A stretch of 24,200 nucleotides of DNA from a virus (Duplodnaviria > Caudoviricetes). A model generated the notes under the pieces. It searched no databases, was not told the DNA's origin, and worked only from the letters and a program-made list of their open reading frames with translations. The translations under genes and the position numbers were made by a program. Positions 5,881 to 24,200 of the stretch are shown in pieces (positions within the stretch are counted from its first letter, which is position 1; every line of letters begins with the position of its first letter). Location: positions 1 to 24,200 of IMG/VR virus record IMGVR_UViG_3300020045_003472; one strand, 5' to 3'.

Positions 5881-5883
5881 GAT

Positions 5884-6366: not shown

Positions 6367-6381
6367 TTTTATACTCCTTGA

Positions 6382-7328: not shown

Positions 7329-7332
7329 GTAA

Positions 7333-7818: not shown

Positions 7819-8285
7819 TACGACACCTCGCAAAATTCGGTAATTCTTAGCGTAAAATCACATCCTAAAAATTCATTGCCAGCCGGATCAACGACAATTC
7901 CCGCGCCGGAAACGTCTGTCAATGCCAGGTTTATTGCGCCAGACACCGTGTCGTTTGTCAAAAAAGACACCATGATTGTGGCGATATTAGTTATCAATCC
8001 AGATGTAATGTCGTAGAGGCCACCAACGCTACCAACCGGAGCACAATGCAAGTAACGATAATACAGGTCATACTCAAGCGTTATCTTTTCGTTGCCGCCC
8101 GACCCCTGCGTTTTTGGTTCGGAGTTGACTTTGCCAAAAATTCCTTTTTCTGCGTTTGGATACAACGTCTGCGGTGCCAAGTTGCCGTGAGTTGGCATAT
8201 CAGTCAAGCCAAGAACCGTAACATCCGTAATACTCAGCGCGGCGATACTCGCGATAACCGTTGAGATTTTGACATTGACAGCCAT
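7818..8285 (-). CDS. Putative tail terminator protein
   Basis: 155 aa in the neck module; alpha/beta pattern ending in a beta strand (GCDFTLRITE). Assignment rests mainly on position and size. Confidence 0.55.
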   Translation of the reverse strand: MAVNVKISTVIASIAALSITDVTVLGLTDMPTHGNLAPQTLYPNAEKGIFGKVNSEPKTQGSGGNEKITLEYDLYYRYLHCAPVGSVGGLYDITSGLITNIATIMVSFLTNDTVSGAINLALTDVSGAGIVVDPAGNEFLGCDFTLRITEFCEVS

Positions 8286-8899: not shown

Positions 8900-8900
8900 G

Positions 8901-9278
8901 TCACGCCTTGATGTACACGATTACAGTGCCGCTTTTGGTATTCCCGGCATTAGTCACGGACAGCGTTAGCGTATCATTGACCACTGCGCCCAGGCTGGAA
9001 ACAACAGTAGATGGAGCAGTGTTGGAGATATTCGTGCCCTGACCCGCCAGAATATCATATCCATCCTCATCGTTGACGACAACATCAAAATTGTTTGTTG
9101 GTTGGCTTCCGCCAGTTCCGGGCGCAAATACTACGCGCCAAACTTCGCCGGTGTATCTTTCTGGCGTAGTACCGCTTGCTGTCCCATCTGCGGCAGAGAC
9201 AAAGGCAAACGATATTTTAGCGAGCCTGGACATTGCCAGTTGCCCGCGTCTTTCCGTAGTAGTTACGCTCATTGTCAT
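8901..9278 (-). CDS. Hypothetical virion structural protein (beta-rich; possible decoration protein)
   Basis: Thr/Gly/Val-rich 125 aa between head and neck genes; translationally coupled (ATGA). Confidence 0.6.
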   Translation of the reverse strand: MTMSVTTTERRGQLAMSRLAKISFAFVSAADGTASGTTPERYTGEVWRVVFAPGTGGSQPTNNFDVVVNDEDGYDILAGQGTNISNTAPSTVVSSLGAVVNDTLTLSVTNAGNTKSGTVIVYIKA

Positions 9279-9469
9279 TTTCGACTAACCTTTTTTGTCG
9301 GGTAAGGAGAAGAAATGGCAGGCTGATTATCGCCAAATTTAACGCAGTGCCCATCGCTCACGAGTTGCTGGGCTTTTCCGTCCGGCATTTCCACAATCGC
9401 ACCAGCCGGATAAAAACAAAGACCGTCCGTTTCGGATCCTCGAAAATCTTTTAAAAACTGTATTTTCAT
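9275..9469 (-). CDS. Small capsid-cluster protein (64 aa)
   Basis: SD AAAGGA upstream; YPAGAIVEMPDGKAQQLVSDG pattern with a Lys-rich tail, common after capsid genes. Confidence 0.75.
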   Translation of the reverse strand: MKIQFLKDFRGSETDGLCFYPAGAIVEMPDGKAQQLVSDGHCVKFGDNQPAISSPYPTKKVSRK

Positions 9470-9483
9470 AATAATTCCTTTTA

Positions 9484-9510
9484 TCAGGGGCGGATTCTAT
9501 CCGCCCCTGA
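9484..9510. other. Perfect 12-bp stem-loop (terminator or mRNA stabilising/processing hairpin)
   Basis: TCAGGGGCGGAT-TCT-ATCCGCCCCTGA; no U-tract on the coding (-) strand. Confidence 0.6.
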
Positions 9511-9515
9511 CTTTC

Positions 9516-9686
9516 TCAATTTTCAATATGCGGCGCTTCGGTGGGGATTTTTACCGCGCTAATACTATTAATCCAGTATTCGCACTCTGAGATTGCGCCA
9601 ATTGTTGCGTTGCCATTCGCCTGGATTTGGTCTAACTTTTTCTGCAATTCGGACAGGCGTCTCTCGAGGTCTTCTTTGGTTATCAT
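9516..9686 (-). CDS. Small coiled-coil protein (56 aa; not in ORF track)
   Basis: MITKEDLERRLSELQKKLDQIQANGNATIGAISECEYWINSISAVKIPTEAPHIEN*; starts 5 nt after the upstream stop. Confidence 0.75.
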   Translation of the reverse strand: MITKEDLERRLSELQKKLDQIQANGNATIGAISECEYWINSISAVKIPTEAPHIEN

Positions 9687-9691
9687 CGCCT

Positions 9692-10531
9692 TTATGCCTT
9701 AGCCGCATAAAGCGGAATATAGCGGACGGTTGAACCAATCAAAACCTTGATCCACCCCGCGTTTGCAGTAGCGGAGATGTCGTTTAGGTCAGAGCCGTTT
9801 GTCAGGCTTGCCGGTTTTCCGTCATCTGGCAGCCAAAGCAGGTTAGTAAAACCATTTGCCGTGTTGGTCAGGTGGAGCAGCGACTTCGTTGTGCCGGATG
9901 CGTTCTCAATGTTGATAGCTGAGACATCCTGGGCGCTTACGTCGGTCACGTTGGATTGAACGGCGAGAAAAATCGCCGCAGCCACACCACCGGAGTTAAA
10001 CGTCTCTCCGTTTAACAAAAGTTTTGCGAAAACCGGAAAAATACCCGTAGCAGGCGCACCTGCCGCAGTCGTAACTGTTGCGCCTGCATCCACCTGGCAA
10101 ATAGCCTGGACAGCAAACATACTATTGGAACTCGCGCCGCTATCCATAAACGGGAAAAAACCCGCTCCCAAAACCTGGGCCACGCCATTCGTGTGTAGCT
10201 CCCGATAGTCTGTATATACCTGGGCGGGCGTAGCGCCAACAGTACCGCTGAAACTTATCCACCCGGAAGTTCTGGTTGGATTAACGCTCGCGCCACGAAT
10301 GGCGTTTGAGTTGGCAGGCAACGTCAGGCTTTCCATGTTGATAGGATGACTCGCCGGTGTTCCAGACGATAGATTAAGCGCATCAGCTGAAATCGTTTCA
10401 AAGCGCCCAACATTTTTTGACGCATCCACCGAAACGACCTTGCTCGCCTCAACTGTGCCAGCAGTAGTCGGGCCATCCGCGAGATCGGCAATAACAGCGT
10501 CGCCTTTGCGTAAAACAAAAGTTGTACCCAT
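9692..10531 (-). CDS. Putative head fibre/decoration protein
   Basis: Ala/Gly/Thr/Ser-rich, directly after the capsid gene; SD AAAAGGA; C-terminal AGWIKVLIGSTVRYIPLY motif typical of fibre-like trimeric ends. Confidence 0.6.
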   Translation of the reverse strand: MGTTFVLRKGDAVIADLADGPTTAGTVEASKVVSVDASKNVGRFETISADALNLSSGTPASHPINMESLTLPANSNAIRGASVNPTRTSGWISFSGTVGATPAQVYTDYRELHTNGVAQVLGAGFFPFMDSGASSNSMFAVQAICQVDAGATVTTAAGAPATGIFPVFAKLLLNGETFNSGGVAAAIFLAVQSNVTDVSAQDVSAINIENASGTTKSLLHLTNTANGFTNLLWLPDDGKPASLTNGSDLNDISATANAGWIKVLIGSTVRYIPLYAAKA

Positions 10532-10552
10532 TGTGTTTATCCTTTTGCCTCC

Positions 10553-10580
10553 CCGGTGTGAGCAACACTGCTCACACCGG
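10553..10580. other. Perfect 12-bp stem-loop downstream of the capsid gene
   Basis: CCGGTGTGAGCA-ACAC-TGCTCACACCGG; a second hairpin TCGGAG-N6-CTCCGA lies at 10605-10622. Confidence 0.6.
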
Positions 10581-10665
10581 ATCAGGCTATCGTATCAGGT
10601 TGATTCGGAGATTACACTCCGACGTTGCAAAAAACTTTGTTTAGGATGTGGATAAAAAGAAAATC

Positions 10666-12171
10666 CTAAATCCCAACATTATAAGTAATGGCCGAGGCCT
10701 CTACATCCCGGTAGATCATGCCGACACGAGCAGTAACGACCATCTGGTAGCTATCGGAGTTCGGGATATTTTGCAGGATCATGTTGATGTTGCGCTTCCA
10801 GCCGAAATGCCATTGATCCCAACGGACGGCCAGGATTGCGCCAGTGGTGTTGTTTGCCTGCGTGGTCAAGTCAACCTTTCCGGCAGTGTTGGCCTTGCGC
10901 GGGTTGGTGGTCGAGCGCCAGTGCATAAACCAGGACGGGATGACGCGGTAGCCCCAAATAGATGCAAACATACCGTTTTCGAGCGTGGCATTTTTGAATA
11001 CATCCTGGGTTTTGACCGACAAAATTTCCTGAACTTTCCAGAACACATTGCCGTCAACAATAAAAGCGCATTTGGCCGGATCGGCATTTTGCCCCGCGCC
11101 CCCTAAAAGTTTCACGGTGTTCAGGAAGTCGGTGTCCACCAAGCTACCAGAAGCGGAACGAGAGTTGGCTGTGTTGGTAACGAGCGCCAGTTTGCGGAAG
11201 CCGTCCAGGGTCAAAAACAAATCCTGAGACGCCCCGGTGCTGGTCGGAGTACCGCCGATATGGTTGATGTTGGTAGTCGCGCCGGTCTCAGTATCTCCAT
11301 CAATAACCAGGTGGTCAACTTGCTCCTTGAACGCAACCTGAACCTTCCGGCGCAACTCAGGAACCCACTCAATCAGGCTGTCCTCATCGAACTCGCCGGA
11401 ATACTGCGGACGAGTGCCGATTTTCGCGAATGTCAGAGTATCTTTTGCAGTCGCGACTTTGGAACTGCCAATGGTGCTGTCGGGAATGCCGGTGGTTGCG
11501 TTGTTGTCAGTTGCCTGTCCGACACGATAAAACGTCGGGTCGGCGCCCTCAACGGGAATCTGGACGGTATCGCCAGGGCCGGTATATTCTTTACCGGGAA
11601 TATTGCTCATCACTTGGGCCTCTTTGCGGATGAGTTCCCACTGTTCGGTTGAGTAGACAGTAGGAACAAACTCGTCACCATACCCCACCTGCGTGGTGTA
11701 GTTGAGTTCGTTCGCCTTTGTCGCATCGAGCGCGGCGGCAGGGTCTACCCCAATCGCCTTCAACGCTTCGCGGCCATTGCGAGCCGTTACGTCATTGCCC
11801 TCCGCGATTTTGGCGGCCAGCGCCTTCATTGCGCCAACACTCGCTCCGCTCGCGCCGGGCCTGCGAAGCGCGGCGGCATCGTTTTGCAGCTTGATGAGCA
11901 TCGCTAAGTCCGACGCGCTATAATGCTCGTACCGATTAGTGTCAGCAAAACGCGCCTGGATCGGAGCGCGGCCAAACGGTAAACGCTGACTGGCCGCTAC
12001 CTGCTGGACAAGCGGCTCAGTGGCAGCTTTCACAGCGTTGTCAATACGCGCCTGGACAGCCGCCTCAGCTTCAAGCTTCGCTTTATCTGCGGCTTGCGAT
12101 TCGGCCAGGGCTTCGGCGGCCATCGTTTTCATAGCCGCCTGAACTTCGGGGTCTTTCAAGTCAATGCTCAT
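10666..12171 (-). CDS. Probable internally initiated scaffold-major capsid protein (501 aa, in frame, from Met300)
   Basis: A-rich CAATCAAAAAGGAACAAAAATG: SD AAGGA upstream of the in-frame ATG at the linker/scaffold junction. Confidence 0.6.
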   Translation of the reverse strand: MSIDLKDPEVQAAMKTMAAEALAESQAADKAKLEAEAAVQARIDNAVKAATEPLVQQVAASQRLPFGRAPIQARFADTNRYEHYSASDLAMLIKLQNDAAALRRPGASGASVGAMKALAAKIAEGNDVTARNGREALKAIGVDPAAALDATKANELNYTTQVGYGDEFVPTVYSTEQWELIRKEAQVMSNIPGKEYTGPGDTVQIPVEGADPTFYRVGQATDNNATTGIPDSTIGSSKVATAKDTLTFAKIGTRPQYSGEFDEDSLIEWVPELRRKVQVAFKEQVDHLVIDGDTETGATTNINHIGGTPTSTGASQDLFLTLDGFRKLALVTNTANSRSASGSLVDTDFLNTVKLLGGAGQNADPAKCAFIVDGNVFWKVQEILSVKTQDVFKNATLENGMFASIWGYRVIPSWFMHWRSTTNPRKANTAGKVDLTTQANNTTGAILAVRWDQWHFGWKRNINMILQNIPNSDSYQMVVTARVGMIYRDVEASAITYNVGI

Positions 12172-13068
12172 TTTTGTTCCTTTTTGATTGTCAGTTGATG
12201 GTTGATTGTCAATCGCGCTATGCCCTGCGGCCTCTCGCGCATTATCGCCGCTATCGAGCGACGGTGTTTCTAAATCATCGGGGATGTTAATTCCTAATGC
12301 TTTTGCAGACGGCATGGCATAAGCATACGAGTTTGCTGGCCGCTTTCCCGTTTCCGTCTCAAACAAGCTTATGCCAACCAGCGGCCAATTAAGAATTTCG
12401 CCGTCTTGCGCAACTCGTACTAAGTGCGAAATACTGTCGGATGATGCACGAGCTAGTCCTTTTTGCGCAGATTGCCAAACCGCGACAGCCTCGGATATGG
12501 TCTCGTCAAGTTTCACCTTCATCCAGCGCCCGGCCTGGTCAGTCCAACGTTTTCCTGCCTCGTGACCAATTTCAACAGGGACGGGTTGCTTGACGCCCCG
12601 CGCCTTGTAACCGTGATAATAAAGCACGAGCGGGTTAGTGAATTTAGTAGCGTGTTCATTGGTGCGCGGGCTAAAGTATTGCATGTCCGCGTCCTTACCA
12701 CCATTCTGTCCGCTGTATGGCATATAGCAGACATCAAGCGTCATGTCTGAGTTGGCTTTGATTGCCAATTCAGGAGTGTTATATTCGGTGTACTCCATGT
12801 CTAGCGAGGCAGCCTTCATCGGCATAGCGTCGGGCTGGCACATTGCGCCAGCCGTAACAATCGCGTCGTGCGCAGCCTGGATATGCTTTTGGTCGGTTGC
12901 GCTATGTCGCGCCCCGGCTTTCGTAGCTTCGCTGTGCTGTTGTTTAAACATCGTCATACACATAGCAACGGCCTGCTCATTGTCACCCGCCGAACCGTCA
13001 TCCACAACCATCGGTATACAGCGTTTCATGAAATCGTCCTGCGTTTCGTTCGGTTCGGGCGTTGGCAT
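10666..13068 (-). CDS. Prohead protease-scaffold-major capsid fusion (HK97 fold)
   Basis: N-terminal MPTPEPNETQDDFMKRC domain; protease-like VLYYHG...ASSDS...WPLVGISL; Ala-rich scaffold; capsid motifs GDEFVPTVYS, EFDEDSLIE, LVIDGDT, IWGYRVI. SD AGGAG. Confidence 0.9.
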   Translation of the reverse strand: MPTPEPNETQDDFMKRCIPMVVDDGSAGDNEQAVAMCMTMFKQQHSEATKAGARHSATDQKHIQAAHDAIVTAGAMCQPDAMPMKAASLDMEYTEYNTPELAIKANSDMTLDVCYMPYSGQNGGKDADMQYFSPRTNEHATKFTNPLVLYYHGYKARGVKQPVPVEIGHEAGKRWTDQAGRWMKVKLDETISEAVAVWQSAQKGLARASSDSISHLVRVAQDGEILNWPLVGISLFETETGKRPANSYAYAMPSAKALGINIPDDLETPSLDSGDNAREAAGHSAIDNQPSTDNQKGTKMSIDLKDPEVQAAMKTMAAEALAESQAADKAKLEAEAAVQARIDNAVKAATEPLVQQVAASQRLPFGRAPIQARFADTNRYEHYSASDLAMLIKLQNDAAALRRPGASGASVGAMKALAAKIAEGNDVTARNGREALKAIGVDPAAALDATKANELNYTTQVGYGDEFVPTVYSTEQWELIRKEAQVMSNIPGKEYTGPGDTVQIPVEGADPTFYRVGQATDNNATTGIPDSTIGSSKVATAKDTLTFAKIGTRPQYSGEFDEDSLIEWVPELRRKVQVAFKEQVDHLVIDGDTETGATTNINHIGGTPTSTGASQDLFLTLDGFRKLALVTNTANSRSASGSLVDTDFLNTVKLLGGAGQNADPAKCAFIVDGNVFWKVQEILSVKTQDVFKNATLENGMFASIWGYRVIPSWFMHWRSTTNPRKANTAGKVDLTTQANNTTGAILAVRWDQWHFGWKRNINMILQNIPNSDSYQMVVTARVGMIYRDVEASAITYNVGI

Positions 13069-13088
13069 AAATAAAACTCCTAGACAAC

Positions 13089-13142
13089 AAAAAAGGCGGC
13101 GCTCCGAACAGGTACGATTAGTACCGTGTTTAGAACGCCGCC
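13089..13142 (-). terminator. Intrinsic terminator-like hairpin in the leader of the capsid gene
   Basis: GGCGGCGTTC...GGTAC-TAATC-GTACC...GAGCGCCGCC followed by TTTTTT, ending 8 nt before the SD. Confidence 0.7.
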
Positions 13143-13242
13143 CGTTGGGGCCTCTGGCATTCGGGGGTATTAAGTTTTTGGCTGGTTACATCGTGTCCAG
13201 TGAGTTATGCGAGGTCGTCAGCCCGAGCACCAGCCTGAAATC

Positions 13243-13272
13243 ATCTTACCACAAAAATACGTGCGATGTCAA
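13243..13272 (-). promoter_or_regulatory. Sigma70-type promoter for the head operon
   Basis: TTGACA-18 nt-TAAGAT with an extended -10 TGn. Confidence 0.7.
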
Positions 13273-13481
13273 GAAGATATTTTTTTGCACTCACGCATTG
13301 CATTTGCAAAAACATCGAAATTGTCCCCGGCATTTTTCGCTTCATCTGGCGAACGTGTTCGAGACGCAATAAAAATTGGCTCTTTATCATCCAGGGACGT
13401 AACATCCATCCAATGATAAGCGATCCACTCATGACGTTTTATGCGAGAAAATGGCCGCATCATAGCGTTGTTTAGTAGCAT
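13269..13481 (-). CDS. Hypothetical protein (70 aa)
   Basis: Strong SD AGGAG upstream; fills the gap between MuF and the capsid promoter. Confidence 0.7.
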   Translation of the reverse strand: MLLNNAMMRPFSRIKRHEWIAYHWMDVTSLDDKEPIFIASRTRSPDEAKNAGDNFDVFANAMRECKKISS

Positions 13482-13493
13482 CTTGTTTTTCTC

Positions 13494-14763
13494 CTACACA
13501 TTCGGTACCCCGCCGTCAGTCAACGGGTTGCGTTTTTTCTTTTTCACCTCACCAACAAAAACGCCATTTTCGGGCTCCTCGGCCACACTCTTTTCGGAAA
13601 CCTCGGAAGCTGTCCATGCAAAGTAGTCGTCGCCCAAATCCGTCATTCCATTTTTTTTCGTAGAATGCCCGCGCTGATTTTGCGGCCTTGAGTATTAACC
13701 CCTTGCCTTCGCTTTGCGCAATTTTCACAAAGTCGTGCAAAATTTTAGAACCATACCCGGTTTCACGAGTTGCCAAGTATTTTATCTCGACAAAATCCTC
13801 GAAATCTCTTCCGCCAACTTCATAACTTGCAACTCCAACAAGTTTCTTGTTTGCGTCGTGAAACATCGCGCCAGCCTGATCGTAATCCCTTACATGCACA
13901 AGCGCCGCTTCGGCTATTTCGTACCGGTCATCATCCCAAGATAATATTTCTTTTCGAGCGCTTTGGATTTTATCTCCATCATCGCTGGAAAAATCAGACG
14001 ATGAGTAACTTTCGCTGCTGCTTTCGCCGCTTCCCCCGCTTCCAAATCTCCCGTTTTCATCACGTGGCTGGTCGGGGTCGTATTTTATTCCGACCAACGA
14101 TTTCTCAGTCAACGGGTCATCTGTTGGCACAATATCGCATTGACAATGCACACCATGACATTTTAGTTCCCACGATTTCGGGTAAATCCCACGCGCTCGC
14201 AATGCTTCCCAGTCTTCTTTTTTCGCCACGACATCTTTCAGCGTCAGGCAGGTTTCACAGTGTTCTGTGTCGCCGACAATCCACTTAAATCTTTTTCCAG
14301 CGTTCGCAGTAGCTACCCTTGCGATACCTACAACTTTTGTGTATTGATTTGCCCACATCTCACCACGATTGAGCATATCATCAATCTTCTCGTTTGGCCG
14401 CGCCTCGATAATAGCAAGCGCAAAATCTCGCAGGTGGTCTAGCTCTGAATTTACTAGCACCGATATTTCGTCGGCCATTGCCTGGGTGAAATCACGTTTA
14501 GTATCCAGGCCATTCTCGGCCATGCCCTCGCGCCATGCCGCAAAAAACTGGTTACTAAGCACAGTTGTAATTTTGCCGATAAATTGCTCAACGTTTGTTT
14601 TGTCGTTGAACAAACTGCGGACGGCGGCTATTATCGTTGAGCGGTAATATTCGTAGGTTTTTATCCCCGCCGATTCGATGCGCGTCAATAAGTCGGCGGG
14701 TATCTCGATCCCGTTGACATCGCACCAAGCCAGGGTATAGAAAATCTCATCAGAGAGTGGCAT
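13494..14763 (-). CDS. MuF/SPP1 gp7-like head morphogenesis protein fused to a GNAT acetyltransferase; apparent frameshift in an A8 tract at 13651-13658
   Basis: MuF-type W...HCETC...CHGVHCQC; linker YDPDQPRDENGRFG; GNAT motifs IKYLAT..TGYGSKIL...ARAFYEK. As given it stops at 13549; removing one A gives FYEKNGM... ending at TAG 13494, abutting the next SD. Confidence 0.75.
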
Positions 14764-14950
14764 AAACAGCCACCGCAAAAGATACACAAGCCGCTAGGAA
14801 GCAAACAAAGCGCTTTGCCCTATCGTCACTCGTTTCTATATGGCGATTGATAAAAAAACCAAGCGAGAAAAAAAAGATTGAAATCAGTACCCATTCATAG
14901 GGGCTTTTCCATACCCCCGCATCGCTCAGGAGAAGAAAATATTTCATCAT
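14750..14950 (-). CDS. Small two-TM membrane protein (66 aa)
   Basis: Two hydrophobic segments (WVLISIFFFSLGFFI; FVCFLAACVSFAVAVYATL); ATGA coupling to the upstream ORF. Confidence 0.65.
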   Translation of the reverse strand: MMKYFLLLSDAGVWKSPYEWVLISIFFFSLGFFINRHIETSDDRAKRFVCFLAACVSFAVAVYATL

Positions 14951-15093
14951 TTCGCCAACACCTTTCCTGCGCACTTCGGACAAGCAATAACACTAGCTCC
15001 GTGACATCTAGCACAATCGCCCTTCTTTCCATCCTTTCCGCACCCCACCGGACATGGTATTTCTTTTTTCCCGTCACACACAGGGCATTTCAT
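14947..15093 (-). CDS. DnaJ-type Cys-rich zinc-finger microprotein (48 aa; not in ORF track)
   Basis: MKCPVCDGKKEIPCPVGCGKDGKKGDCARCHGASVIACPKCAGKVLAK*; four Cys pairs; ATGA overlaps at both ends. Confidence 0.8.
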   Translation of the reverse strand: MKCPVCDGKKEIPCPVGCGKDGKKGDCARCHGASVIACPKCAGKVLAK

Positions 15094-16619
15094 TTCGTTA
15101 CCTCCAGCGCCTTCACGGCCATGTACAGCGCATCAATTACCATCGGCTGAGACTGCAACGAGCGCCGCGCCGATGCGAATATATCCCCAATGTCTATTCC
15201 GCCACGTCGCAGATTATCGCGCACGCTATCGGCTACCAGCGCGGGGGTATTATGCGCGGTGAAGTCAATCGCCTTTTTTACACTTTTCACCGCGACCCGC
15301 TCCCACGCTTCCAATTCGCGCATGGCCGGATAGATGTCTGCTTTCTGTGATACTCGTTCTTCCACCGCGTTGATGTCTGTCAGGTTATCCGCCGTCTCTG
15401 CGGGAAGCGCTGGATTGGTGCTCTCTGCGGGGGATATGGGCTGCACTGGTTCGGGGGTTGGAGCGGAAAGCAACTTGTACATCTGCCCGCCGATCTCGGG
15501 GTCTTCATGCGGCGAGTCTCCCCATATTTTCCGGTATTCGTCTACCGTCAAAACGTTTGCGTGTTCCTTGTTTTCGCTGAGTAACAATACTCGGTCTGTT
15601 ACGCGGATGTCGTCTGGCCGGATTACAAATTCTTTCCCGTAGTATTTCCACAAAACTTTTTGAGTGAGCAGGTCGTAGAATGTCAGCAGAATCGGATATA
15701 CAACCAGGTCAATCAGCGTAGCTTTTCCGCTCCTGGCATTAGCTTCCGTTGCGGACGCAGAGAGCATAGATACCAATCCTGGCCCGACACGATTCAAGAT
15801 TTCGTCCCGGCTATTATCCCGGCCAACATAAAATTGCATATCAGACGGCGGGGAGGATGTGCTCACCCACGTTACCGCGCCCTGGCCGGTAGAGCGCAGG
15901 CGCATAATGTTGTTTTTAGACGCGGCCTTGTCTATATCCTCGCCAATCAGTTTCCAATCATCGTTGTTGATTGGGTCTGCAAATGCCAAGATGCCGGGCA
16001 GGCGGCCATTGCCTTTGTACGTGTTTTGGCTCCACTGTTGCATTGAGATGTCGTTACTAGCTGTCATCTGTATACTGGTCAAACTGCTCTCTGGTTGGAT
16101 CATGTTGAGCGGGTCATAATCGCTCATGTGTATAATTTGCTCTTTCGGTATCAATATCACCCCCCCGTCCCCAGGATCATACAGATACCCGTCAATACCT
16201 AGTGTCCCAGAAATCTTTGGCGCGATATTCGCCATTGGTATTCGCCACATTTCGATAACGCGATTATCTACAATGTTGAGCCATAGATATGCATTATTAT
16301 TCAGGACGTAATCTGCGATAAACTGTCGAATCAGAGAACGCCCTGTTTGTAACTCGTTCGGAGAAATTAGCCGCGCCGTCAATTCATGATCTGGCAGCGC
16401 CTCGTCTTCGCCAGGACGTACACGATATACCTGTTTGTCCGCCATTGCCGCAATAGCTGAGATAATATCCACGCCAATGGCAACCCACGACAGGCGCTTA
16501 TACAGCATCCCCATGCGCTGAGATAACGTTAATTCCGGCCACTCCGACGCCATTGTGCGAGCGTGGGCCAGATACCAATCAGGATATGCGCTTTTATTTT
16601 TCGCTGGATAAGTTGCCAT
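15090..16619 (-). CDS. Portal protein (HK97 family) with a C-terminal extension
   Basis: SWVAIGVDIIS, PNELQTG, LNNNAYLW, IIHM..YDP, ATEANA, LTVDEYR motifs; follows TerL. Confidence 0.92.
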   Translation of the reverse strand: MATYPAKNKSAYPDWYLAHARTMASEWPELTLSQRMGMLYKRLSWVAIGVDIISAIAAMADKQVYRVRPGEDEALPDHELTARLISPNELQTGRSLIRQFIADYVLNNNAYLWLNIVDNRVIEMWRIPMANIAPKISGTLGIDGYLYDPGDGGVILIPKEQIIHMSDYDPLNMIQPESSLTSIQMTASNDISMQQWSQNTYKGNGRLPGILAFADPINNDDWKLIGEDIDKAASKNNIMRLRSTGQGAVTWVSTSSPPSDMQFYVGRDNSRDEILNRVGPGLVSMLSASATEANARSGKATLIDLVVYPILLTFYDLLTQKVLWKYYGKEFVIRPDDIRVTDRVLLLSENKEHANVLTVDEYRKIWGDSPHEDPEIGGQMYKLLSAPTPEPVQPISPAESTNPALPAETADNLTDINAVEERVSQKADIYPAMRELEAWERVAVKSVKKAIDFTAHNTPALVADSVRDNLRRGGIDIGDIFASARRSLQSQPMVIDALYMAVKALEVTK

Positions 16620-16825
16620 TATTGCCTCACGTATACATGATAACCCTGGCCCTGCAAATGCACGCAGAGCGCAGACAAATCCTGCTCTTCTACGGATGTT
16701 CGATACCCCTGCGGCTTGTTCGGTGCGATGATGATATAAAATATTTCTTTGTTGCGAGTATAGGGCATAGAGAAACGATAGAGCCGGTAATAAAAGTGAA
16801 TGAGTGCGGATATGATTCTCTTCAT
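16619..16825 (-). CDS. Hypothetical protein (68 aa)
   Basis: Fills the gap between TerL and portal; TAATG overlap with the portal start. Confidence 0.6.
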   Translation of the reverse strand: MKRIISALIHFYYRLYRFSMPYTRNKEIFYIIIAPNKPQGYRTSVEEQDLSALCVHLQGQGYHVYVRQ

Positions 16826-16831
16826 TTTTCC

Positions 16832-18175
16832 CTATCCGTTGAATGCGTACAGGTCGCGGCCCATCGGTTTACCGTATCCCATCATACCAAGCGCCCCCGC
16901 GCTGATACTATCCGGCAAATGTTCGCCACTACCGAATACGGCTTCCACAGACGCAAATTTATGCTCCTGATAAGCGTACCTGATAAATGGATAAATTATA
17001 TCCCCGTTTTCACAGGCCGCCGCATAGTCAGATAACATTTTTGCGCGTGGACGCCCTGCCATTATAACACCCGTTGCGGGTTGGGTTAGGTATCCGCTAA
17101 CAACGTCACCTATGCCAGTACCGTCGTGGTGCGCCGGGCCTTTGTATCGCAGTAACCGCGCATCTAATTTACCCAACATTACCGGCCAATCCAGTCGCGC
17201 GGTGCGCTCCCAAGCCACGCACCGCGCTGGTTCGCAATCCACCCTAAATGTAATGATGATTGTCCAATCCTGTTTTCTGGCCCAATCCGCGCCTGTAGCA
17301 TATCGCGCGCCGGGAATAGGCGGCTCTATTTCGATGTACTCATGCGCCGCGCCCTCAAACTCGCCAAGCGAACGGTCAAACATACGCTCTACTGCTGCGG
17401 GCTGAATTGCCCGACTGGACGGGTTAGGCTCCTGGTTGTCGTATTCAGTAGCCCACATCCCTGCCGTTACTTCGTTTCTCTTCTGGTCAACATCCGACTG
17501 TTTCAGCCAGCCATGTGGCTCTAGCGTCTCTTTCCAGCACCATTCATGCACCCCCCACCCCTTTTGTTGCGCACGTTGCAAAATCTCTTGCATTGTACCA
17601 TCGCTGTATTGGCGCGTACTACTCATCACTGTTTGAGCATGTACGCCACTTTTCGACATCGGCTGTCCCATCGCGGCGTCAAGTATTGGTAAAGTCATTT
17701 CGTCTATTTCATCCAGCCGTAGCCGCTGGGGATGCGGCCCGCGCACACTTGCCTGCGACGCCATGAGCGCCTGAACTTTTGCGCCATTATTCAACCGGGT
17801 CGTAGTGGCCGCGTCTGATAATAGCATAGATCGCGGGGCTGCTTCACCGCGCCATAAATTCTGCATGTGCTCCAGTACCCGCTTGGATTGTTCCCCTGAT
17901 CCTCCCAATACATTTACGTCCGCGCCCAACGTAACAGCTTCGGTCATTGACAAGACAGCCAGTGTAAACGACTTCCCCGCAAAACCACGCGAGCCGTGCC
18001 ACACCGAAACAGGGTAGCGCCCAAAATACGCATCTGAAAAAGCCCGCCAGGGGGTTGTGTGATGGGCGCATACCTGTACATCCGGGACGCGTACCCCCCA
18101 TGCCACCTCGACAAACTCTCGTAGGGTTTCGTCGGTCAATATCGGCAGATGGTATTCGTATTCTCGTAATGTCAT
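16832..18175 (-). CDS. terL: Terminase large subunit
   Basis: Walker A-like GSRGFAGKS, Walker B LRLDEIDE, nuclease GADWARKQDWT / DGTGIG / HLPDSISA. Confidence 0.95.
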   Translation of the reverse strand: MTLREYEYHLPILTDETLREFVEVAWGVRVPDVQVCAHHTTPWRAFSDAYFGRYPVSVWHGSRGFAGKSFTLAVLSMTEAVTLGADVNVLGGSGEQSKRVLEHMQNLWRGEAAPRSMLLSDAATTTRLNNGAKVQALMASQASVRGPHPQRLRLDEIDEMTLPILDAAMGQPMSKSGVHAQTVMSSTRQYSDGTMQEILQRAQQKGWGVHEWCWKETLEPHGWLKQSDVDQKRNEVTAGMWATEYDNQEPNPSSRAIQPAAVERMFDRSLGEFEGAAHEYIEIEPPIPGARYATGADWARKQDWTIIITFRVDCEPARCVAWERTARLDWPVMLGKLDARLLRYKGPAHHDGTGIGDVVSGYLTQPATGVIMAGRPRAKMLSDYAAACENGDIIYPFIRYAYQEHKFASVEAVFGSGEHLPDSISAGALGMMGYGKPMGRDLYAFNG

Positions 18176-18588
18176 TTTTTCGCCAAGTCTGAGCTATCGT
18201 CCCTGACTATCCGTATAATGTTGTGGTTGACTTCCACCGCCCCGCCGTCCGCGCCGGTCACGGCGAGTGCCTGGGGAACTTTGCCATAAGCCGCCTCGGT
18301 CAACGCCTGCTGCCGCTTCGGGTCTCTCAGCCAAGAGCGGGCCACCATTTCGGCGTTTGTGGCATAGTGGTCAACGAGCACCGGCTGCCCGTTGTCGTCA
18401 AACACCGGTTTGCCGTCTTTGACCATCGGTATTTTGATAAGCACCAAGCCGTCCTTGCCGCTGGCAGGCTCGGACATGATCTCTTTGGCGAGTTCGCGCC
18501 ATGCGTCGAACGAACGCGGGCGACCTTTTTTATTGATAGCCGTCGGGCGTTTGTCTAAGCCGTTTTTAGGTGGATTGTGATTAGCCAT
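18172..18588 (-). CDS. terS: Terminase small subunit (138 aa)
   Basis: INKKGRPR N-terminal motif, YGKVPQ and TGADGGAVEV C-terminal motif; directly upstream of TerL. Start chosen at MANHN to avoid overlap. Confidence 0.75.
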   Translation of the reverse strand: MANHNPPKNGLDKRPTAINKKGRPRSFDAWRELAKEIMSEPASGKDGLVLIKIPMVKDGKPVFDDNGQPVLVDHYATNAEMVARSWLRDPKRQQALTEAAYGKVPQALAVTGADGGAVEVNHNIIRIVRDDSSDLAKK

Positions 18589-18611
18589 GTTTGTAAATGT
18601 TTGTATGCGGC

Positions 18612-19811
18612 TCAGTCTAACCGCTTGATTTCGATGGTGGGGAAAGCGTCGGTCATGCGTTGAAGAATGACGGCGCAATAAATTTCAGATATTTCAATTG
18701 CTCGACATTTGCGACCCAAATTTTCGCAAGCCACAAGAGTCGTACCGGAACCGGCAAATGGTTCGTAAACTAACTCGCCTTCTACGCTAGAATTCTTTAT
18801 CGCTCTTGCAGGCAGGTCTACCGGCATCATGGTTGGGTGTTCTTCACTTACTCGCGGGCGGTCTATCTCCCAGACATCATCCAAATTTCTAGCATCACAG
18901 AATGAGCTTTTGGACTTCTTGTGCCACCCATACCATATTGGCTCATAACGACGATGATACTTCGAGCGTCCTAAAACAAAAATATCCTTCACCCAAATTA
19001 AAGTTGCAGACCAATGATACTTTTGCGCCCGAAAAATTGCACTAATAATATCCATGTATTCTGAAGCTACCTTGCAGTAAACGTCGCCGTCGCAGGTCGA
19101 GACAAAGGTCGAGACAAAGGTCGAGACAAAGGTCGAATAATCATCGTCAGACATATCGTCATTTTGGAGGCCGTCTCTTTGTTTGTGGCGAGGGTTACTA
19201 TCCTTCCCGATTGCAACGTTCCAGGGTGGGTCGGTAAATATCATGCGTGCTTTCTGTCCGCCCATCAACCGCCCCACATCCTCCCACGCCGTAGAATCTC
19301 CGCACAATAACCGATGCTCACCAATCTGCCACAAGTCGCCGCGCTTGACTCGCCATTTCTCTTGTAATTCATCCCCGGCTTCAATCTGCGGCTCCGCGTC
19401 CACCGGCGCAAAACCGGTATCCACCATCCCCCAGTCTTCCAAGTCTACGCCCGCCGCAAAGTCGGCGGCTATCTGTTCTTCGTCCCAAGCCAAATCCAAC
19501 TCAGCGACTTTGTTGTCAGCGTAAGCCAACTCGCGCCCGCGCTTGTCCTGGTCGCTATACAGGTCTAAGTCCATGCGCTTGACGACTACCAACTCACGCC
19601 CGTCTGTTTCCACGATGCGAACGGGTAAGCCGATTTCGGCGGCATTCTCCAAAGTCTTGTTGCCTGCAATGATGTTTCCGTTTTTATCCGCGAGAATAGA
19701 GCGCCCGGCCCCCAGCTTGCGCAGTGATTTTTCGAGCAACCCCCGCCCGCGCTGAGTCCCTTTATTTGCGTTTTTTATATCCGGCTTAAGTTCAGCGTCG
19801 TCAATGTTCAT
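18612..19811 (-). CDS. ParB-like domain fused to an N4/N6 DNA methyltransferase (beta class)
   Basis: IIAGNKTLE (ParB-like), HRLLCGDST, FTDPPWN (motif IV), EPFAGSGTT (motif I); start at 19811 (ATGA overlap), 19823 also possible. Confidence 0.9.
   Translation of the reverse strand: MNIDDAELKPDIKNANKGTQRGRGLLEKSLRKLGAGRSILADKNGNIIAGNKTLENAAEIGLPVRIVETDGRELVVVKRMDLDLYSDQDKRGRELAYADNKVAELDLAWDEEQIAADFAAGVDLEDWGMVDTGFAPVDAEPQIEAGDELQEKWRVKRGDLWQIGEHRLLCGDSTAWEDVGRLMGGQKARMIFTDPPWNVAIGKDSNPRHKQRDGLQNDDMSDDDYSTFVSTFVSTFVSTCDGDVYCKVASEYMDIISAIFRAQKYHWSATLIWVKDIFVLGRSKYHRRYEPIWYGWHKKSKSSFCDARNLDDVWEIDRPRVSEEHPTMMPVDLPARAIKNSSVEGELVYEPFAGSGTTLVACENLGRKCRAIEISEIYCAVILQRMTDAFPTIEIKRLD
19094..19136. repeat. 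12-bp perfect tandem repeat x3.6 in the methylase (STFV repeats)
   Basis: (AGGTCGAGACAA)x3 + AGGTCGA. Confidence 0.95.
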
Positions 19812-20056
19812 CGCCTCATCCATCTCCGCACCCTCCCCGCCACCGTCACGCACCAGCGCCAGGCGCGGGATAGCCAAGTGTCGCTCGCTACGTTGTAATA
19901 CGTCAAGCCACTATCGGAAAACACGGAATAGGCTCTCGATGACGTAGAATTAATTAGCGGAACTCGCGCTTCGTCATCGTTCCAGATTAGCGCAAAATAA
20001 TTGTTGCCTACCTCTTCCGCGGTTTCACGACCTTTTTCCAGGCGCGTGTCACCCAT
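19808..20056 (-). CDS. Hypothetical protein (start uncertain)
   Basis: Fills the gap between HNH and methylase and its stop overlaps the methylase ATG; the nearest ATG overlaps the HNH gene by about 50 nt. Confidence 0.4.
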   Translation of the reverse strand: MGDTRLEKGRETAEEVGNNYFALIWNDDEARVPLINSTSSRAYSVFSDSGLTYYNVASDTWLSRAWRWCVTVAGRVRRWMRR

Positions 20057-20268
20057 GTCATCAAACTGTGACAGCGACGGCAGAGCGGGATAATCTCGAA
20101 TACCCACTCAGCGCCCAGGCGGGCGTAGCCGAGCGCGTGATGTCCTTCGAGATTCCTGGTAGCACGACATATCAGACAGCGATTACCCCAAAACTCGAAG
20201 GCCCGGCGGCGCTTTTTGTACCACGCCGGGGAATGGATGTATCTGAGATACTCAGGCGAGAAAGTCAT
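20008..20268 (-). CDS. HNH endonuclease (86 aa), probably packaging-associated
   Basis: YIHSPAWYKKR...CLIC...LEGHH..Y...LCRRCH; upstream of the terminase genes. Confidence 0.88.
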   Translation of the reverse strand: MTFSPEYLRYIHSPAWYKKRRRAFEFWGNRCLICRATRNLEGHHALGYARLGAEWVFEIIPLCRRCHSLMTWVTRAWKKVVKPRKR

Positions 20269-20270
20269 AG

Positions 20271-20480
20271 TTATTCCCGTAACACGTCTCCGACACTCAG
20301 ATTCGAAGACACACCCGCCATTTCTGCACCGACGACGATACCAACGCATTTCACCGATTCCCGGAGCGCGACAGGACTACCGGGAAACTCACTCGCTAAA
20401 ACATGGTCAATAACCCGGTAGCATATGCGCGTACCGTCTCCGTACTCAATCTCAAACTCATCGCCAATTGGTCTAAGCAT
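20271..20480 (-). CDS. Hypothetical protein (69 aa)
   Basis: Abuts the HNH start; its ATG begins 3 nt after the tRNA discriminator base; no SD. Confidence 0.55.
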   Translation of the reverse strand: MLRPIGDEFEIEYGDGTRICYRVIDHVLASEFPGSPVALRESVKCVGIVVGAEMAGVSSNLSVGDVLRE

Positions 20481-20482
20481 AG

Positions 20483-20558
20483 TTGCGGGGGGTGGACTCG
20501 AACCACCATATTTCAGGTTATGAGCCTGTTCCCGGCACCCTTCCGGGAGTACCCCGCG
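20483..20558 (-). tRNA. tRNA-Met(CAT), initiator-type, atypical (possibly pseudo-tRNA); CCA not encoded
   Basis: CGCGGGG TA CTCCCGGAAGGGTGCCGGGA ACAGG CTCATAA CCTGA AATAT GGTGG TTCGAGT CCACC CCCCGCA A: C1xA72 mismatch, fMet-like acceptor stem and anticodon loop, canonical T-arm. Confidence 0.85.
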
Positions 20559-20779
20559 TCATTGTTGCGCCACACCGCGACGGTCTCAGTCATGTCGGTG
20601 AGATTACCGGGATGATCCCGTAACCCATCTTGTGCATACCATGCAGGGACACGCCGAAACGCATTGGCGTAAATCAGCGTGTCCGCAAAATTACGGACGC
20701 GAATAAATCGCATTGTCTCGGCGACGAATGCGCTAGTCGCCTGGTTATACTCAGTCAAAGATTTCAGGAAATCATCCAT
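20513..20779 (-). CDS. Hypothetical protein (88 aa); 3' end overlaps the tRNA
   Basis: MDDFLKSL...; purine-rich SD-like GGGGGAAGGG upstream. The overlap with the tRNA lowers confidence. Confidence 0.45.
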   Translation of the reverse strand: MDDFLKSLTEYNQATSAFVAETMRFIRVRNFADTLIYANAFRRVPAWYAQDGLRDHPGNLTDMTETVAVWRNNDAGYSRKGAGNRLIT

Positions 20780-20787
20780 ATTTTTTC

Positions 20788-20967
20788 CCTTCCCCCGCCG
20801 CGAAACGGGAGTAAACGCAGCGGGGGAAGGTCTTACTCCACTGCGTAAAACGCAATGGAGCGGGCGCCGCCCGATACCGGATGAACCCGGCGGCCTTTGC
20901 GCCATGACGGAGTCGGCGGTCAGTCGAAACTTTAGGCCGCCCCGCCACCGTTGCTCGCTGTCGGTAG
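20788..20967 (-). ncRNA. Candidate structured RNA (intergenic, multiple stems)
   Basis: Stems CTACCG/CGGTGG, GCGGCCT/AGGCCGC, CTCCATTGCGT/ACGCAGTGGAG, CCTTCCCCCGCTGCG/CGCGGCGGGGGAAGG; mismatches resolve as G-U on the minus strand. Confidence 0.5.
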
Positions 20968-20969
20968 TT

Positions 20970-21185
20970 TTATTTTACCACTTTTTCGCGCAACTCGACA
21001 GTGATATTTGCGCCGATGCGGTTGATGTCCCAGGCGCACAAACATTTACGGCATATCGTCATCTGGTAATTGAGCGGCTCGATGTCGCCAATGTGTACCG
21101 CTAGTTTCGCGCCGCAATCGCAGTCAAATTTGTAATAGATTACATTCGCGTCAATTTCTTCGATGTGACTGCGTTTTACTCTCAT
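20970..21185 (-). CDS. Small zinc-ribbon protein (71 aa)
   Basis: CDCG...CRKC motifs. Confidence 0.7.
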   Translation of the reverse strand: MRVKRSHIEEIDANVIYYKFDCDCGAKLAVHIGDIEPLNYQMTICRKCLCAWDINRIGANITVELREKVVK

Positions 21186-21456
21186 CGCCGGATTCCTTTT
21201 TGATTAGCCGATAAGCATTACCAGATTTACCATTCGGCAAAATAACGTCCTTTATTTTTTCAAATACCCCGTCCTCAACCATCTCTTCGAGCAGCCGCCT
21301 GGCCCGCAGTTTTCCGGCCTGCGTGTTGGGGTATTGCCATTGCGACAGGGCGCTCTCCACCGTCATATCCCCCGGCTGGTATTGCGGTTTGGCGTACTGC
21401 GCCATAGCCGCAAGTACGTCTGGATTCAACTGTACTTTTGTAAATGTACAGGTCAT
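21151..21456 (-). CDS. Hypothetical protein, possible winged helix
   Basis: ARRLLEEMVEDGVFEK...AYR pattern; ATGA-coupled to the phosphoesterase. Confidence 0.65.
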   Translation of the reverse strand: MTCTFTKVQLNPDVLAAMAQYAKPQYQPGDMTVESALSQWQYPNTQAGKLRARRLLEEMVEDGVFEKIKDVILPNGKSGNAYRLIKKESGDESKTQSHRRN

Positions 21457-22286
21457 TTTATACTATCTCCTATCTCCCATGTTCGCGCCGCGAACGGCAT
21501 TAGCAGAAATTCCGGCTCTGCGTCACCCCCATCAAAATACACCATGCCCACCTGTGGATAATCCGACTCCGCGCCAATCCGGTACATATATTCTCCGGGC
21601 AGGCCAAAGCACGGAGTAGTTAGGACGCGCATATCCCCCCAAGTTTTCCCAGTGTCAAAAACGCGGTGAACGTGAGACCGGACAACATAATGCGGCATTC
21701 GTTCCCCGCGCTCATCCGGCGCTTTACGCCGGTTGCAGTGCTCATACATTTTCCGCGCCAGGGTATGCACGGACGCCGGGGTATTACCTGCGATGTGGTG
21801 CGTTATGTCAAAACGGCGATTGTCAAAAATGCGGCGCAAATGCCACCAAGAAGACGTACCCCGATCCGGGTCTTTCTCCGCGCCAATGTCGGCGGCGTAT
21901 AGCTCTTCCATTTTGCCGGATGCCCCACTGTGCGCCGGGGACGTACCGCGTATGACATAGACTCTATTCGCCATATTGACCACCCCTGCCAATGTGTCAA
22001 TCGTCATACCCAGTACGTCCGCCTCGTTACGACTGATTACCTGGTTCGTCCTGTTTTTTGCGTCCAAGTCCGCAATGTCCCCATTGAGCACCAGGGTCAA
22101 CCTGCGCCCCGATTTTCTTTTACACAATCTCAGTTTCACAGTTTCGATCTGCTCAAGATATCCCGCCCGAAGCTGCTGCTGGAAACTGTTTGGGTGATAG
22201 TCATCTCCATCGTCAAGCGTCACCAGTTCGGGGCATAGTGACATTTTGCTATTTATGTGCGTGTCAGCGATTACCAATAGCGGCAT
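21453..22286 (-). CDS. Calcineurin-like metallophosphoesterase
   Basis: Motifs ADTH, NGDIAD, RGTSPAH, THH, RSHVH. Confidence 0.88.
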   Translation of the reverse strand: MPLLVIADTHINSKMSLCPELVTLDDGDDYHPNSFQQQLRAGYLEQIETVKLRLCKRKSGRRLTLVLNGDIADLDAKNRTNQVISRNEADVLGMTIDTLAGVVNMANRVYVIRGTSPAHSGASGKMEELYAADIGAEKDPDRGTSSWWHLRRIFDNRRFDITHHIAGNTPASVHTLARKMYEHCNRRKAPDERGERMPHYVVRSHVHRVFDTGKTWGDMRVLTTPCFGLPGEYMYRIGAESDYPQVGMVYFDGGDAEPEFLLMPFAARTWEIGDSIK

Positions 22287-22991: not shown

Positions 22992-23051
22992 TAGCACAAA
23001 ATGAACATTTTCTTCCGAGAAATTGGTCTAAAAGATGTCCGTTTTGTGCTA
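22992..23051. repeat. Imperfect 19-bp inverted repeat containing the TGTCCGTTTT motif
   Basis: TAGCACAAAATGAACATTT ... AGATGTCCGTTTTGTGCTA (16/19). Confidence 0.7.
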
Positions 23052-23078
23052 CACATTGTATACAATGTATTGTATAAT
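23050..23078 (+). promoter_or_regulatory. Promoter (TACACA-17-TATAAT) overlapped by a 16-bp palindromic operator ACATTGTATACAATGT
   Basis: Perfect palindrome at 23053-23068; its TTGTATACAA core matches the GntR-family operator type. Confidence 0.65.
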
Positions 23079-23116
23079 GATAGCAAGATAGACAATAAAA
23101 AAAACAGGAGAATAAA

Positions 23117-23407
23117 ATGGACATCAAATCAATCAATACTGAGTACGTGACCGACAGCCCCTACGCTCATCTCATCCAACCCGATGGAGAGTTTGTACCC
23201 TACTACTCTACAGTTATTCACTACACCGATCCACGCGACGGGGAACGCGCAGACCGTGTGTACAATGTATCGGGGCGCGGCAACACGGAATACGAGAGTG
23301 AGCAGGATGCTATTGCAAACCTGAAAGCGCAATTGTCTGCAAAGGTGTACTCGGCAGTCGAAAAGTACTACGCGGCAAACGGCGCTGGAATGCTTGATAT
23401 AGCATAG
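23117..23407 (+). CDS. Hypothetical protein (96 aa)
   Basis: SD AGGAG; first gene after the promoter. Confidence 0.8.
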   Translation: MDIKSINTEYVTDSPYAHLIQPDGEFVPYYSTVIHYTDPRDGERADRVYNVSGRGNTEYESEQDAIANLKAQLSAKVYSAVEKYYAANGAGMLDIA

Positions 23408-23415
23408 AGGCGCAC

Positions 23416-23628
23416 ATGCTTAAAAACTCCATCACCCCCGCAACCGTCGCGGCCTGCTCCGCGCTCTTGGATTACATCGCGGCCCACCCCGGCCCATCCG
23501 AGAAAGAGTTAGCTGACGAATTTGGCATATCCCGGCCAACAATCCGGCACAGGCTAGCGATCCTGGAGCGCGAAAAACTCATCACGCGAACACCGGGCAA
23601 ACAGCGCAGTATTCGCACCGTAACATAA
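23416..23628 (+). CDS. Stand-alone winged-HTH regulator (GntR/LexA-like DNA-binding domain)
   Basis: PSEKELADEFGISRPTIRHRLAILEREKLI (GntR-like HTH) with wing RTPGKQRSI (LexA-like). Confidence 0.85.
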   Translation: MLKNSITPATVAACSALLDYIAAHPGPSEKELADEFGISRPTIRHRLAILEREKLITRTPGKQRSIRTVT

Positions 23629-23632
23629 CGAT

Positions 23633-23689
23633 CAATTTGTCCGTTTTATGGATATAGACGGACAGTTGCGTCCAAATCACAAGTTAGCT
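23633..23689 (+). mobile_element. attI-like recombination site (candidate)
   Basis: Degenerate L box TCCAAAT-5 nt (CACAA)-core GTTAGCT (23683-23689); upstream inverted TGTCCGTTT/AGACGGACA pair. Confidence 0.45.
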
Positions 23690-24077
23690 TGCACCTTGCA
23701 GGCAAAGGAGAAAAATGTCAATCGAAGAGCTGCTCAAGAAAGAATTATTCAATTGTGGTGAATCTCAGTGCAATGAAGTCATGGCCCGCGTGAAGGCTTC
23801 AAAGGGTAACGAAGCCCTGTCGAGGGTCTGGTCGGATACGCCAGAAGATTACCCCCCAATCATTGTTTCACTCGCTCGGTTTGCCGTGCGGCGCGAAACT
23901 CTCGCGTTTATTGATGAAACCTGCCCGCAAGCGTGGTTTCGTGAAATGTTTGTTCCTGCTGTCAGAGAAGCAAGCTAACAAAGCGTGCAATGGACGTGTG
24001 CCACGCGCTGGCACAACGAGTTAATTCTGATTATCCGGCTTGCGTGTTTGGTCGCACACGCCATTAACGCAAGTCCG
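23684..24077 (+). mobile_element. Integron-type gene cassette (394 bp)
   Basis: Begins at core G|TTAGCTTGC; single promoterless ORF with SD; GCAAGCTAAC at its end is the exact 10-nt reverse complement of the start; ends in attC. Confidence 0.8.
23715..23978 (+). CDS. Cassette-encoded hypothetical protein (87 aa)
   Basis: SD AAAGGAG; stop TAA lies inside the attC R'' box. Confidence 0.8.
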   Translation: MSIEELLKKELFNCGESQCNEVMARVKASKGNEALSRVWSDTPEDYPPIIVSLARFAVRRETLAFIDETCPQAWFREMFVPAVREAS

Positions 24078-24083
24078 TTGGGC
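23973..24083 (+). mobile_element. attC site (111 bp)
   Basis: R'' AGCTAAC-AAAGC-L'' GTGCAATG-GACGTGTGC...GCACACGC-L' CATTAAC-GCAAGTCC-R' GTTGGGC; unpaired C in L'' and unpaired A at 23994 give bottom-strand extrahelical G and T. Confidence 0.85.
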
Positions 24084-24106
24084 AGCTTCGCCAGAAAGGG
24101 AACAAA

Positions 24107-24200
24107 GTGGAACCTAAGTGGTTTACAGAGAATATGAAAAAATATGCCGGTGCTAATGCGTCATTTGCCGAAACGCTAAAATCAAAATACGCACGCAAGG
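24107..24200 (+). CDS. Start of the next putative cassette ORF (partial)
   Basis: SD-like AAAGGGA, GTG start, open to the window end (MEPKWFTENMKKYAGANASFAETLKSKYARK...). Confidence 0.6.
   Translation, partial: MEPKWFTENMKKYAGANASFAETLKSKYARK

Follow-up and report, generated by a model that had tools for sequence, protein, structure and literature searches.

The viral record and its predicted rightward unit

The window, meaning the whole stretch of DNA that was analysed, is the entire linear virus record IMGVR_UViG_3300020045_003472 (24,200 bases; Caudoviricetes). The record is estimated to be 53% complete, and no terminal repeat was found in its 24,200 bases. A leftward phage arm occupies positions 2..22286 of the minus strand and includes, according to Pfam and PHROG matches, genes for a metallophosphoesterase-like protein, an HNH protein, a DNA methyltransferase, the terminase large subunit, the portal, a head-tail adaptor and a tail protein; the capsid and tape-measure labels in this arm were assigned from size and position. 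The 800-aa gene at 10666-13068 has no Pfam or PHROG match, is 39-41% identical to genes of the records G008 and G004, and likely encodes a fused protease-capsid protein. The initial annotation of this DNA had placed the cassettes described below about 1.4 kb from the virion operon. This distance has to be revised: the gene found there (21453-22286, minus strand) is metallophosphoesterase-like on a weak Pfam match below the cut-off and is not a virion gene, and the terminase large subunit gene lies 5.5 kb from the cassettes.

At 22300-22350, where the leftward arm begins, lies an inverted repeat with perfect 21-bp arms and a 9-nt loop. Its half-sites occur again at 22445-22461, and a 15-bp tandem repeat is present at 22409-22438. 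In a search of Rfam nothing reached the gathering level; the matches at 22293-22355 are weak and are to microRNA hairpins.

From position 22494 the plus strand carries, in order, a 134-aa gene, a terminator-like site (22951-22973), a promoter-like site, a 96-aa gene, a winged-helix gene and the cassettes. The promoter-like site, TACACA-17-TATAAT (23050..23078, plus strand), agrees with 10 of 12 consensus positions and is the predicted start of a rightward unit that runs into the cassettes; two such sites were found in the window against 3.1 expected in shuffles, which is not significant alone. No terminator-like site was found between 23117 and 24200. The 96-aa gene (23117..23407, plus strand) encodes a product without assigned role, with a 66% identical homologue in the metagenome contig L102 and another in the contig L101. 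It is followed by the gene of a 70-aa winged-helix (GntR/MarR-like) regulator (23416..23628, plus strand; PF00392, E 1e-9; phrog_3502), the stop codon of which lies 54 nt ahead of the cassette insertion point at 23683. The 54-nt leader contains no promoter-like site (Pc), and one site, of a type no more frequent than expected by chance, is 600 bp upstream. The gene that precedes the array of the phage G001 (L016:9222-9743) likewise encodes a winged-helix domain of phrog_3502.

The motif TGTYCRTTTT is found four times in the window, at 22998-23007 (minus), 23036-23045 (plus), 23114-23123 (minus) and 23638-23647 (plus), all of them within 22998..23647. Three copies are placed around the promoter-like site and the start of the 96-aa gene, and the last lies in the leader, 36 nt before the GTT at which the cassettes begin. 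Shuffles gave a mean of 0.41 copies and 0 of 100 reached four, for a pattern that was chosen post hoc. The motif may constitute the operator of the winged-helix protein, and the copy in the leader appears to connect the leader with the phage regulatory region.

Cassette anatomy and the putative docking site

Cassette 1 spans 394 bp (23684..24077, plus strand). A single ORF (23715..23978, plus strand; SD AAGGAG) fills the unit; it lies 32 nt from the core G and ends with its stop in R'', and no promoter-like site was found inside the cassette. The core at the cassette start, GTTAGCTTGC (23683-23692), has an exact 10-nt reverse complement, GCAAGCTAAC, at 23970-23979. The attC site (23973..24083, plus strand; 111 bp) consists of R'' AGCTAAC (23973-23979), a 5-nt spacer and L'' GTGCAATG (23985-23992) on its left side, and of L' CATTAAC (24062-24068), an 8-nt spacer and R' GTTGGGC (24077-24083) on its right side. 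Two top-strand bases, C23988 and A23994, are extrahelical (G and T on the bottom strand), and the stem contains one mismatch, G23987/A24066. Cassette 2 starts at 24078, and 23 nt past R' a GTG at 24107, preceded by the SD AAAGGGA, opens a frame of 31 codons that runs to the end of the record at 24200 (plus strand), 117 nt past attC. The contig thus stops inside an ORF, the right side of the array is absent from the record, and the partial ORF has no Pfam or PHROG match. The initial annotation had described the 87-aa ORF unit, the reverse complement, the stop within R'', the full attC with both spacers and two extrahelical bases, and the second ORF with its SD, and all of these features were recovered at their positions.

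The site was further analysed with a covariance model of our own (R1), which was built from 31 aligned attC sites of other viral contigs with the window site left out. R1 scores the window attC at 75.3 bits (E about 3e-18), and the next best match in the window reaches 12 bits. With a heuristic based on structure only, the score of the site (14 or more) was reached 6 times in 200 shuffled windows. Within the family alignment, 97.5% of cells are paired against 31-41% when the partners are slid, and 12 of 21 stem pairs show changes on both sides, although the structure was drawn from the same sequences, which favours these results. As judged by R1, the window attC is genuine rather than a chance resemblance. 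The same search detected no second attC elsewhere in the 24.2 kb, including the stretch to the right up to 24200. The "cassette array" of the initial annotation is accordingly limited to one complete attC and the start of a second cassette.

The relation between R'' and the cassette start had been read earlier as the footprint of a cassette that integrated as a circle. Since R'' matches the start at 23683 over 10 of 10 bases and its own R' (GTTGGGC) over only 3, this reading stands, and cassette 1 is, on the evidence of these boxes, a real integrated cassette. The family displays the same relation: among the 72 cassettes between consecutive viral attC sites, 49 match their own start over at least 9 bases and one matches the downstream R'. 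The bottom strand of attC is predicted to be the recombining hairpin. In the circle-junction form attC is predicted to fold as a long hairpin; in the integrated (linear) form the predicted recombinogenic fold lies 4 kcal/mol above the minimum and makes up about 0.3% of the ensemble, which could slow the excision of cassette 1. In many viral cassettes (L016-L034) the ORF runs through attC and stops in the right arm, approximately 75-115 nt into the site, in contrast to the window cassette, the stop of which falls in R''.

The 87-aa product of cassette 1 is all-helical and belongs to a family with phage members (PHROG 31275). This family comprises 725 representatives, and 16 of 50 aligned members match phrog_31275, with a best E of 2.8e-9. 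The predicted model is a compact helical domain (pLDDT 94). A fold search returned no match at E <= 0.001 in PDB or BFVD, the best row being an 89-aa Cellulophaga phage protein (E 0.16), and the sequence gave no Pfam match, no notable PDB sequence match and no usable Atlas match. The family was not found in five host genomes, which are incomplete and were searched with no positive control. Judged by context, and with low confidence, the protein could be an early host-interaction protein.

An attI site is composed of an L box, a 5-bp spacer and a GTT core. The initial annotation had not recognized such a site ahead of 23683, where an attI-like arrangement (23658..23689, plus strand) is present, with the L box TCCAAAT at 23671-23677, a 5-nt spacer and the putative crossover G|TT at 23683/23684. 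A matrix derived from 13 other array leaders, built without the leader of the window, ranks the 23683 site first among 793 GTT positions (7.9 versus 5.3 for the next). In direct comparison the leader is identical, in register, to the IntI-adjacent attI of L032 (phage G017) at 16 of 25 positions, a value that one other of the 793 GTT positions likewise reaches, with a lead in summed score of only 71 versus 69. Identity amounts to 14 of 25 with L026 and L048, and to 6-9 with four other IntI-adjacent leaders. Two stretches of the leader, AA at -8/-7 and GTTGC at -18 to -14, line up with the same bases in the sites next to intI in L032 and L026. A short attI pattern was followed by a downstream attC in only one of the 80 loci examined out of 107; this locus belongs to the L032 record, which had itself been used to define the pattern. 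With a high rank and an uneven identity, the support for an attI-like site is modest; position 23683 is likely a docking site borne by the phage.

The phages with their own integrase offer a reference for this arrangement. In all three (G008, G011 and G017) intI is co-oriented with the cassettes and directly upstream of them, ending 0-13 bp before the GTT. The attI that the leader of the window most resembles is the one overlapping the 3' end of intI in G017 and G011; unlike G008, G011 and G017, the window keeps only about 25-30 bp of this likeness and no remnant of intI. The IntI loci L032:8860-9856, L026:10642-11751 and L023:8849-9852 belong to complete phage records in which attI sits where intI ends. 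The GTT directly adjoins the stop codon of intI in L032 and L026, and L032 also has a second tyrosine recombinase gene immediately upstream of intI. At L021:9765-9850 and L028, the leader of an IntI-less phage shares approximately 15 identical bases with the intI 3' end of L026, which suggests an attI that remained after the loss of intI.

Related arrays in phages and in bacterial chromosomes

A two-arm attC pattern was used to find other carriers of this attC family. It matches 19 viral contigs, 10 of which are at least 90% complete and 5 of which have terminal repeats. Whole-record searches of 13 viral carriers revealed between 1 and 12 attC sites in each. Phage genes lie on both sides of the array in five of the six annotated viral loci; the sixth, L026, has terL on one side and belongs to a terminally repeated record. 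The proposal that phages carry these attC cassettes is supported by comparison, as arrays of the family lie between phage genes in near-complete or terminally repeated records. The initial annotation had also located the recombinase outside the window. In agreement with this, no tyrosine recombinase (PF00589) was matched in the 24.2-kb record, itself 53% complete, and tblastn with three phage IntIs against the window yielded neither a match nor a coding remnant of intI. Integrases above the TIGR02249 cut-off were found in 3 of the 19 viral carriers and in 9 of 22 prokaryote genomes bearing the pattern, and 7 of the 10 near-complete viral carriers have no IntI. A tree of 12 IntI rows groups L032 with L026 on a long branch, and neither supports nor rejects a single clade of phage integrases.

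G008, which encodes IntI and has 9 attC sites, shares 11 colinear genes with the window (virion genes; 28-43% identity), and G001 shares 8, in a comparison that covered 14 records, several of them in part. G018 is complete and without IntI. Its array stands divergent from genes for a methyltransferase, terL and the portal, which corresponds to the layout of the window, and the methyltransferases are 77% identical over 206 aa; its leader and array head recT, a replication initiator and dnaC-like genes. Separate arrays, two or more per phage, occur in L033 (G018), G002 and G001; those of G018 are oppositely oriented, one lying in the early arm and the other past the portal gene.

Viral cassettes have a median length of 338 bp (n=86, window included), compared with 742 bp for host cassettes (n=30, from one genome), and the 394-bp cassette of the window falls near the former. 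Of 80 viral cassette ORFs, 24 match PHROG families and 11 of these are DNA methyltransferases, versus 3 of 24 host ORFs with no methyltransferase. Cassette ORFs whose boundaries or calls were doubtful (5 of 85 viral, 6 of 30 host) were excluded from this count. Near-identical cassettes in different phages amount to two, at 79% and 80% protein identity. The 15 terminase relatives examined (51-64% identity, 2 complete) all lack an attC of the window type. No close relative of the window was found by the cassette protein, the metallophosphoesterase, the winged-helix protein or the 96-aa family in viral contigs, nor by exact attC-arm patterns, the exact attI pattern in metagenomes or annotated phage records.

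Homologues of the 96-aa protein led to two metagenome contigs, L101 and L102, the latter not selected for the presence of attC. In L101 the homologue is divergent from a terminase operon (terL), with no attC in the next 476 bases. In L102 a cassette of 2.72 kb (374-3103) forms part of an array, and its start matches the R'' of the closing attC over 10 bases. It contains the 96-aa homologue, a 143-aa gene, a PAPS_reduct+DUF3440 gene, a ParB_N gene, an 83-aa gene and a promoter-like stretch. To judge by these boundaries, a whole multi-gene module is packaged as one cassette in L102. Because the homologue lies inside this cassette, the gene beside the array of the window is cassette cargo elsewhere.

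The same attC pattern occurs at 24 prokaryote genome loci, 18 of which are titled Chloroflexota (to which the Ktedonobacterales belong), with 8 naming Anaerolineae or a group within it. As most of these loci are from Chloroflexota, the phage host is likely an Anaerolineae (Chloroflexota) bacterium. The attC family forms large chromosomal arrays in Anaerolineales. At L061, L048, L063 and L066 a divergent intI begins approximately 125-175 bp from the site of the first cassette, a stretch that is occupied by the winged-helix gene in the window. The pattern is also matched by L043, L051, L058 and L046, which are binned as Magasanikiibacteriota, Woesearchaeota, Saccharibacteria or Clostridia and may be misbinned phage DNA; L043, L051 and L058 have arrays of short cassettes.

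Proposed loading of the site and relation to known integrons

That the cassettes in this record are phage-borne is something we infer from the comparison with related records. The explanation that we favour, and consider moderately probable, is that an attC cassette and the start of a second one stand at a phage-borne attI without an adjacent integrase, loaded by an IntI acting in trans. This IntI would be supplied by the chromosome of the Anaerolineae host or by a co-infecting phage. It would bind the folded bottom strand of attC in a circular cassette and recombine it with the double-stranded attI of the phage at G|TT 23683/23684; new cassettes would enter at this point, cassette 1 being the newest. 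Transcription of the promoterless cassettes would start at the rightward phage promoter near 23050 and first pass through the genes for the 96-aa and winged-helix proteins. The absent part of approximately 21 kb would contain further cassettes followed by replication genes, as in G018. The benefit for the phage would be the quick gain and reordering of small accessory genes, including anti-restriction methyltransferases, from a pool that circulates among these phages.

Phage-borne cassettes are also compatible with a less specialized site. Position 23683 could be a secondary site of the attG type, at which a host IntI used a permissive GTT between two genes, with later cassettes joined by attC x attC recombination and no dedicated attI involved. 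According to bioRxiv 10.1101/2022.09.11.507474, IntI inserts cassettes at sites defined by the GWT consensus only, and the window resembles the attG sites described there in having cassettes inserted at a GTT away from intI. The uneven resemblance to attI (6-16 of 25) and a pattern scan that returned no independent carrier agree with such an origin. According to the same work, however, attG sites have only GWT in common and a structure unlike attI, whereas the window site has an attI-like L box and an extended likeness to IntI-adjacent leaders. The first rank of the leader under a matrix built without it, the bases kept in register with L032 and L026, and the position of 23683 at the head of a transcription unit, as in G018, also argue against it, and we regard an attG-type site as unlikely. 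The phage might alternatively encode an IntI of its own in the absent 21 kb, 23683 being then a second or displaced attI. IntI genes are present in three of the 10 near-complete carriers, among them G008, the nearest to the window in virion genes, and several carriers have more than one array; but in all three IntI carriers the place directly upstream of the GTT belongs to intI, not to a winged-helix gene as in the window, and the other seven near-complete carriers manage without one, which makes a resident integrase distinctly unlikely.

The two remaining alternatives concern the limits of the array. The right end of the record could be host chromosome, with a prophage beside or inside an Anaerolineae integron, or a chimeric join at an attI/attC repeat. 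The contig stops within the array, the same attC family builds large chromosomal arrays in Anaerolineales, and a Vibrio prophage bounded by attC sites is known (PMC9892861). Nevertheless, there is no intI at the distance seen in hosts and no recombinase in the window that would mark a prophage end, the TGTYCRTTTT motif found around the upstream promoter is present again 36 nt ahead of the GTT, and the cassette is of the short class and encodes a protein from a family with phage members that was not found in the five incomplete host genomes (searched with no positive control). A prophage flank is thus less likely than phage-borne cassettes, and a host or chimeric right end is, overall, quite improbable. 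It is also conceivable that 23622-23689 is a decayed attC that closes the winged-helix gene as an older cassette, the array starting further left. The stop of this gene lies in ACATAAC, behind which come a 5-nt spacer and an inverted repeat that is imperfect, and the homologue of the preceding 96-aa gene is cassette cargo in L102. R1 with filters off, however, gives no entry at E <= 5 for this stretch, its fold is weak (-8.3 kcal/mol), and no matching GTTATGT start is present upstream within 22301-24200; a decayed attC is therefore highly improbable.

A cassette site at the far end of intI has counterparts outside phages. In the Treponema integron attI is located downstream of intI. PMC9668308 describes the same order for archaeal integrons. 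The chromosomal integrons of Anaerolineae (L061, L048, L063 and L066; arrays L042, L053 and L057) resemble the window in attC arms, box layout and attI leaders, the latter being similar rather than the same. They differ in that intI is divergent and adjacent, the cassettes are about twice as long (one genome) and few of them match phage families, whereas the window is without intI.

Integrons and CALINs are already known in phages: in a survey of 10,705 phage genomes, Qi 2023 (PMC9892861) reported 3 complete integrons, 1 In0 and 17 CALINs, showed recombination with attI1 for 5 of 6 attC sites from phages, noted methyltransferase cargo and described the Shewanella prophage M16-3, in which an attI heads an integrase-less array. 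The window resembles these cases in having an attC-bounded single-gene cassette in a phage without adjacent integrase, and the wider group described here also has methyltransferase cargo. With one attC, no integrase nearby and a contig that ends 117 nt later, the window lies below the two-site minimum that defines a CALIN in that work. The 21 cases of Qi 2023 are scattered, and its host list names no Chloroflexota and gives three hosts as unknown. Here, by contrast, a single attC family recurs across at least 19 viral contigs, and different phages have cargo of the phage type in common. The literature searched, with most subscription papers outside its coverage, contained no report of integrons in Chloroflexota phages.

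Taken alone, the window is a short, incomplete representative of a phage group in which integron parts are abundant, and its value lies in the candidate attI with a putative phage operator and in the link to L102. More broadly, and tentatively, Anaerolineae phages might trade phage genes and modules on attC sites of the host type by means of mostly integrase-less attI sites; in the window the attI would stand under the phage's own repressor, the operator of which would lie in the leader, and the newest cassette would be expressed together with the early genes. Bacteria are known to capture genes by means of integrons, which have recently also been described as stores of anti-phage genes. If the proposal is true, phages that keep an attI, borrow IntI and stock phage genes and methyltransferases would turn the integron machinery to counter-defence. 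Such an exchange would also offer a specific mechanism by which phage genomes become mosaic, and it would supply newly made cassettes, with a bearing on the origin of cassettes.
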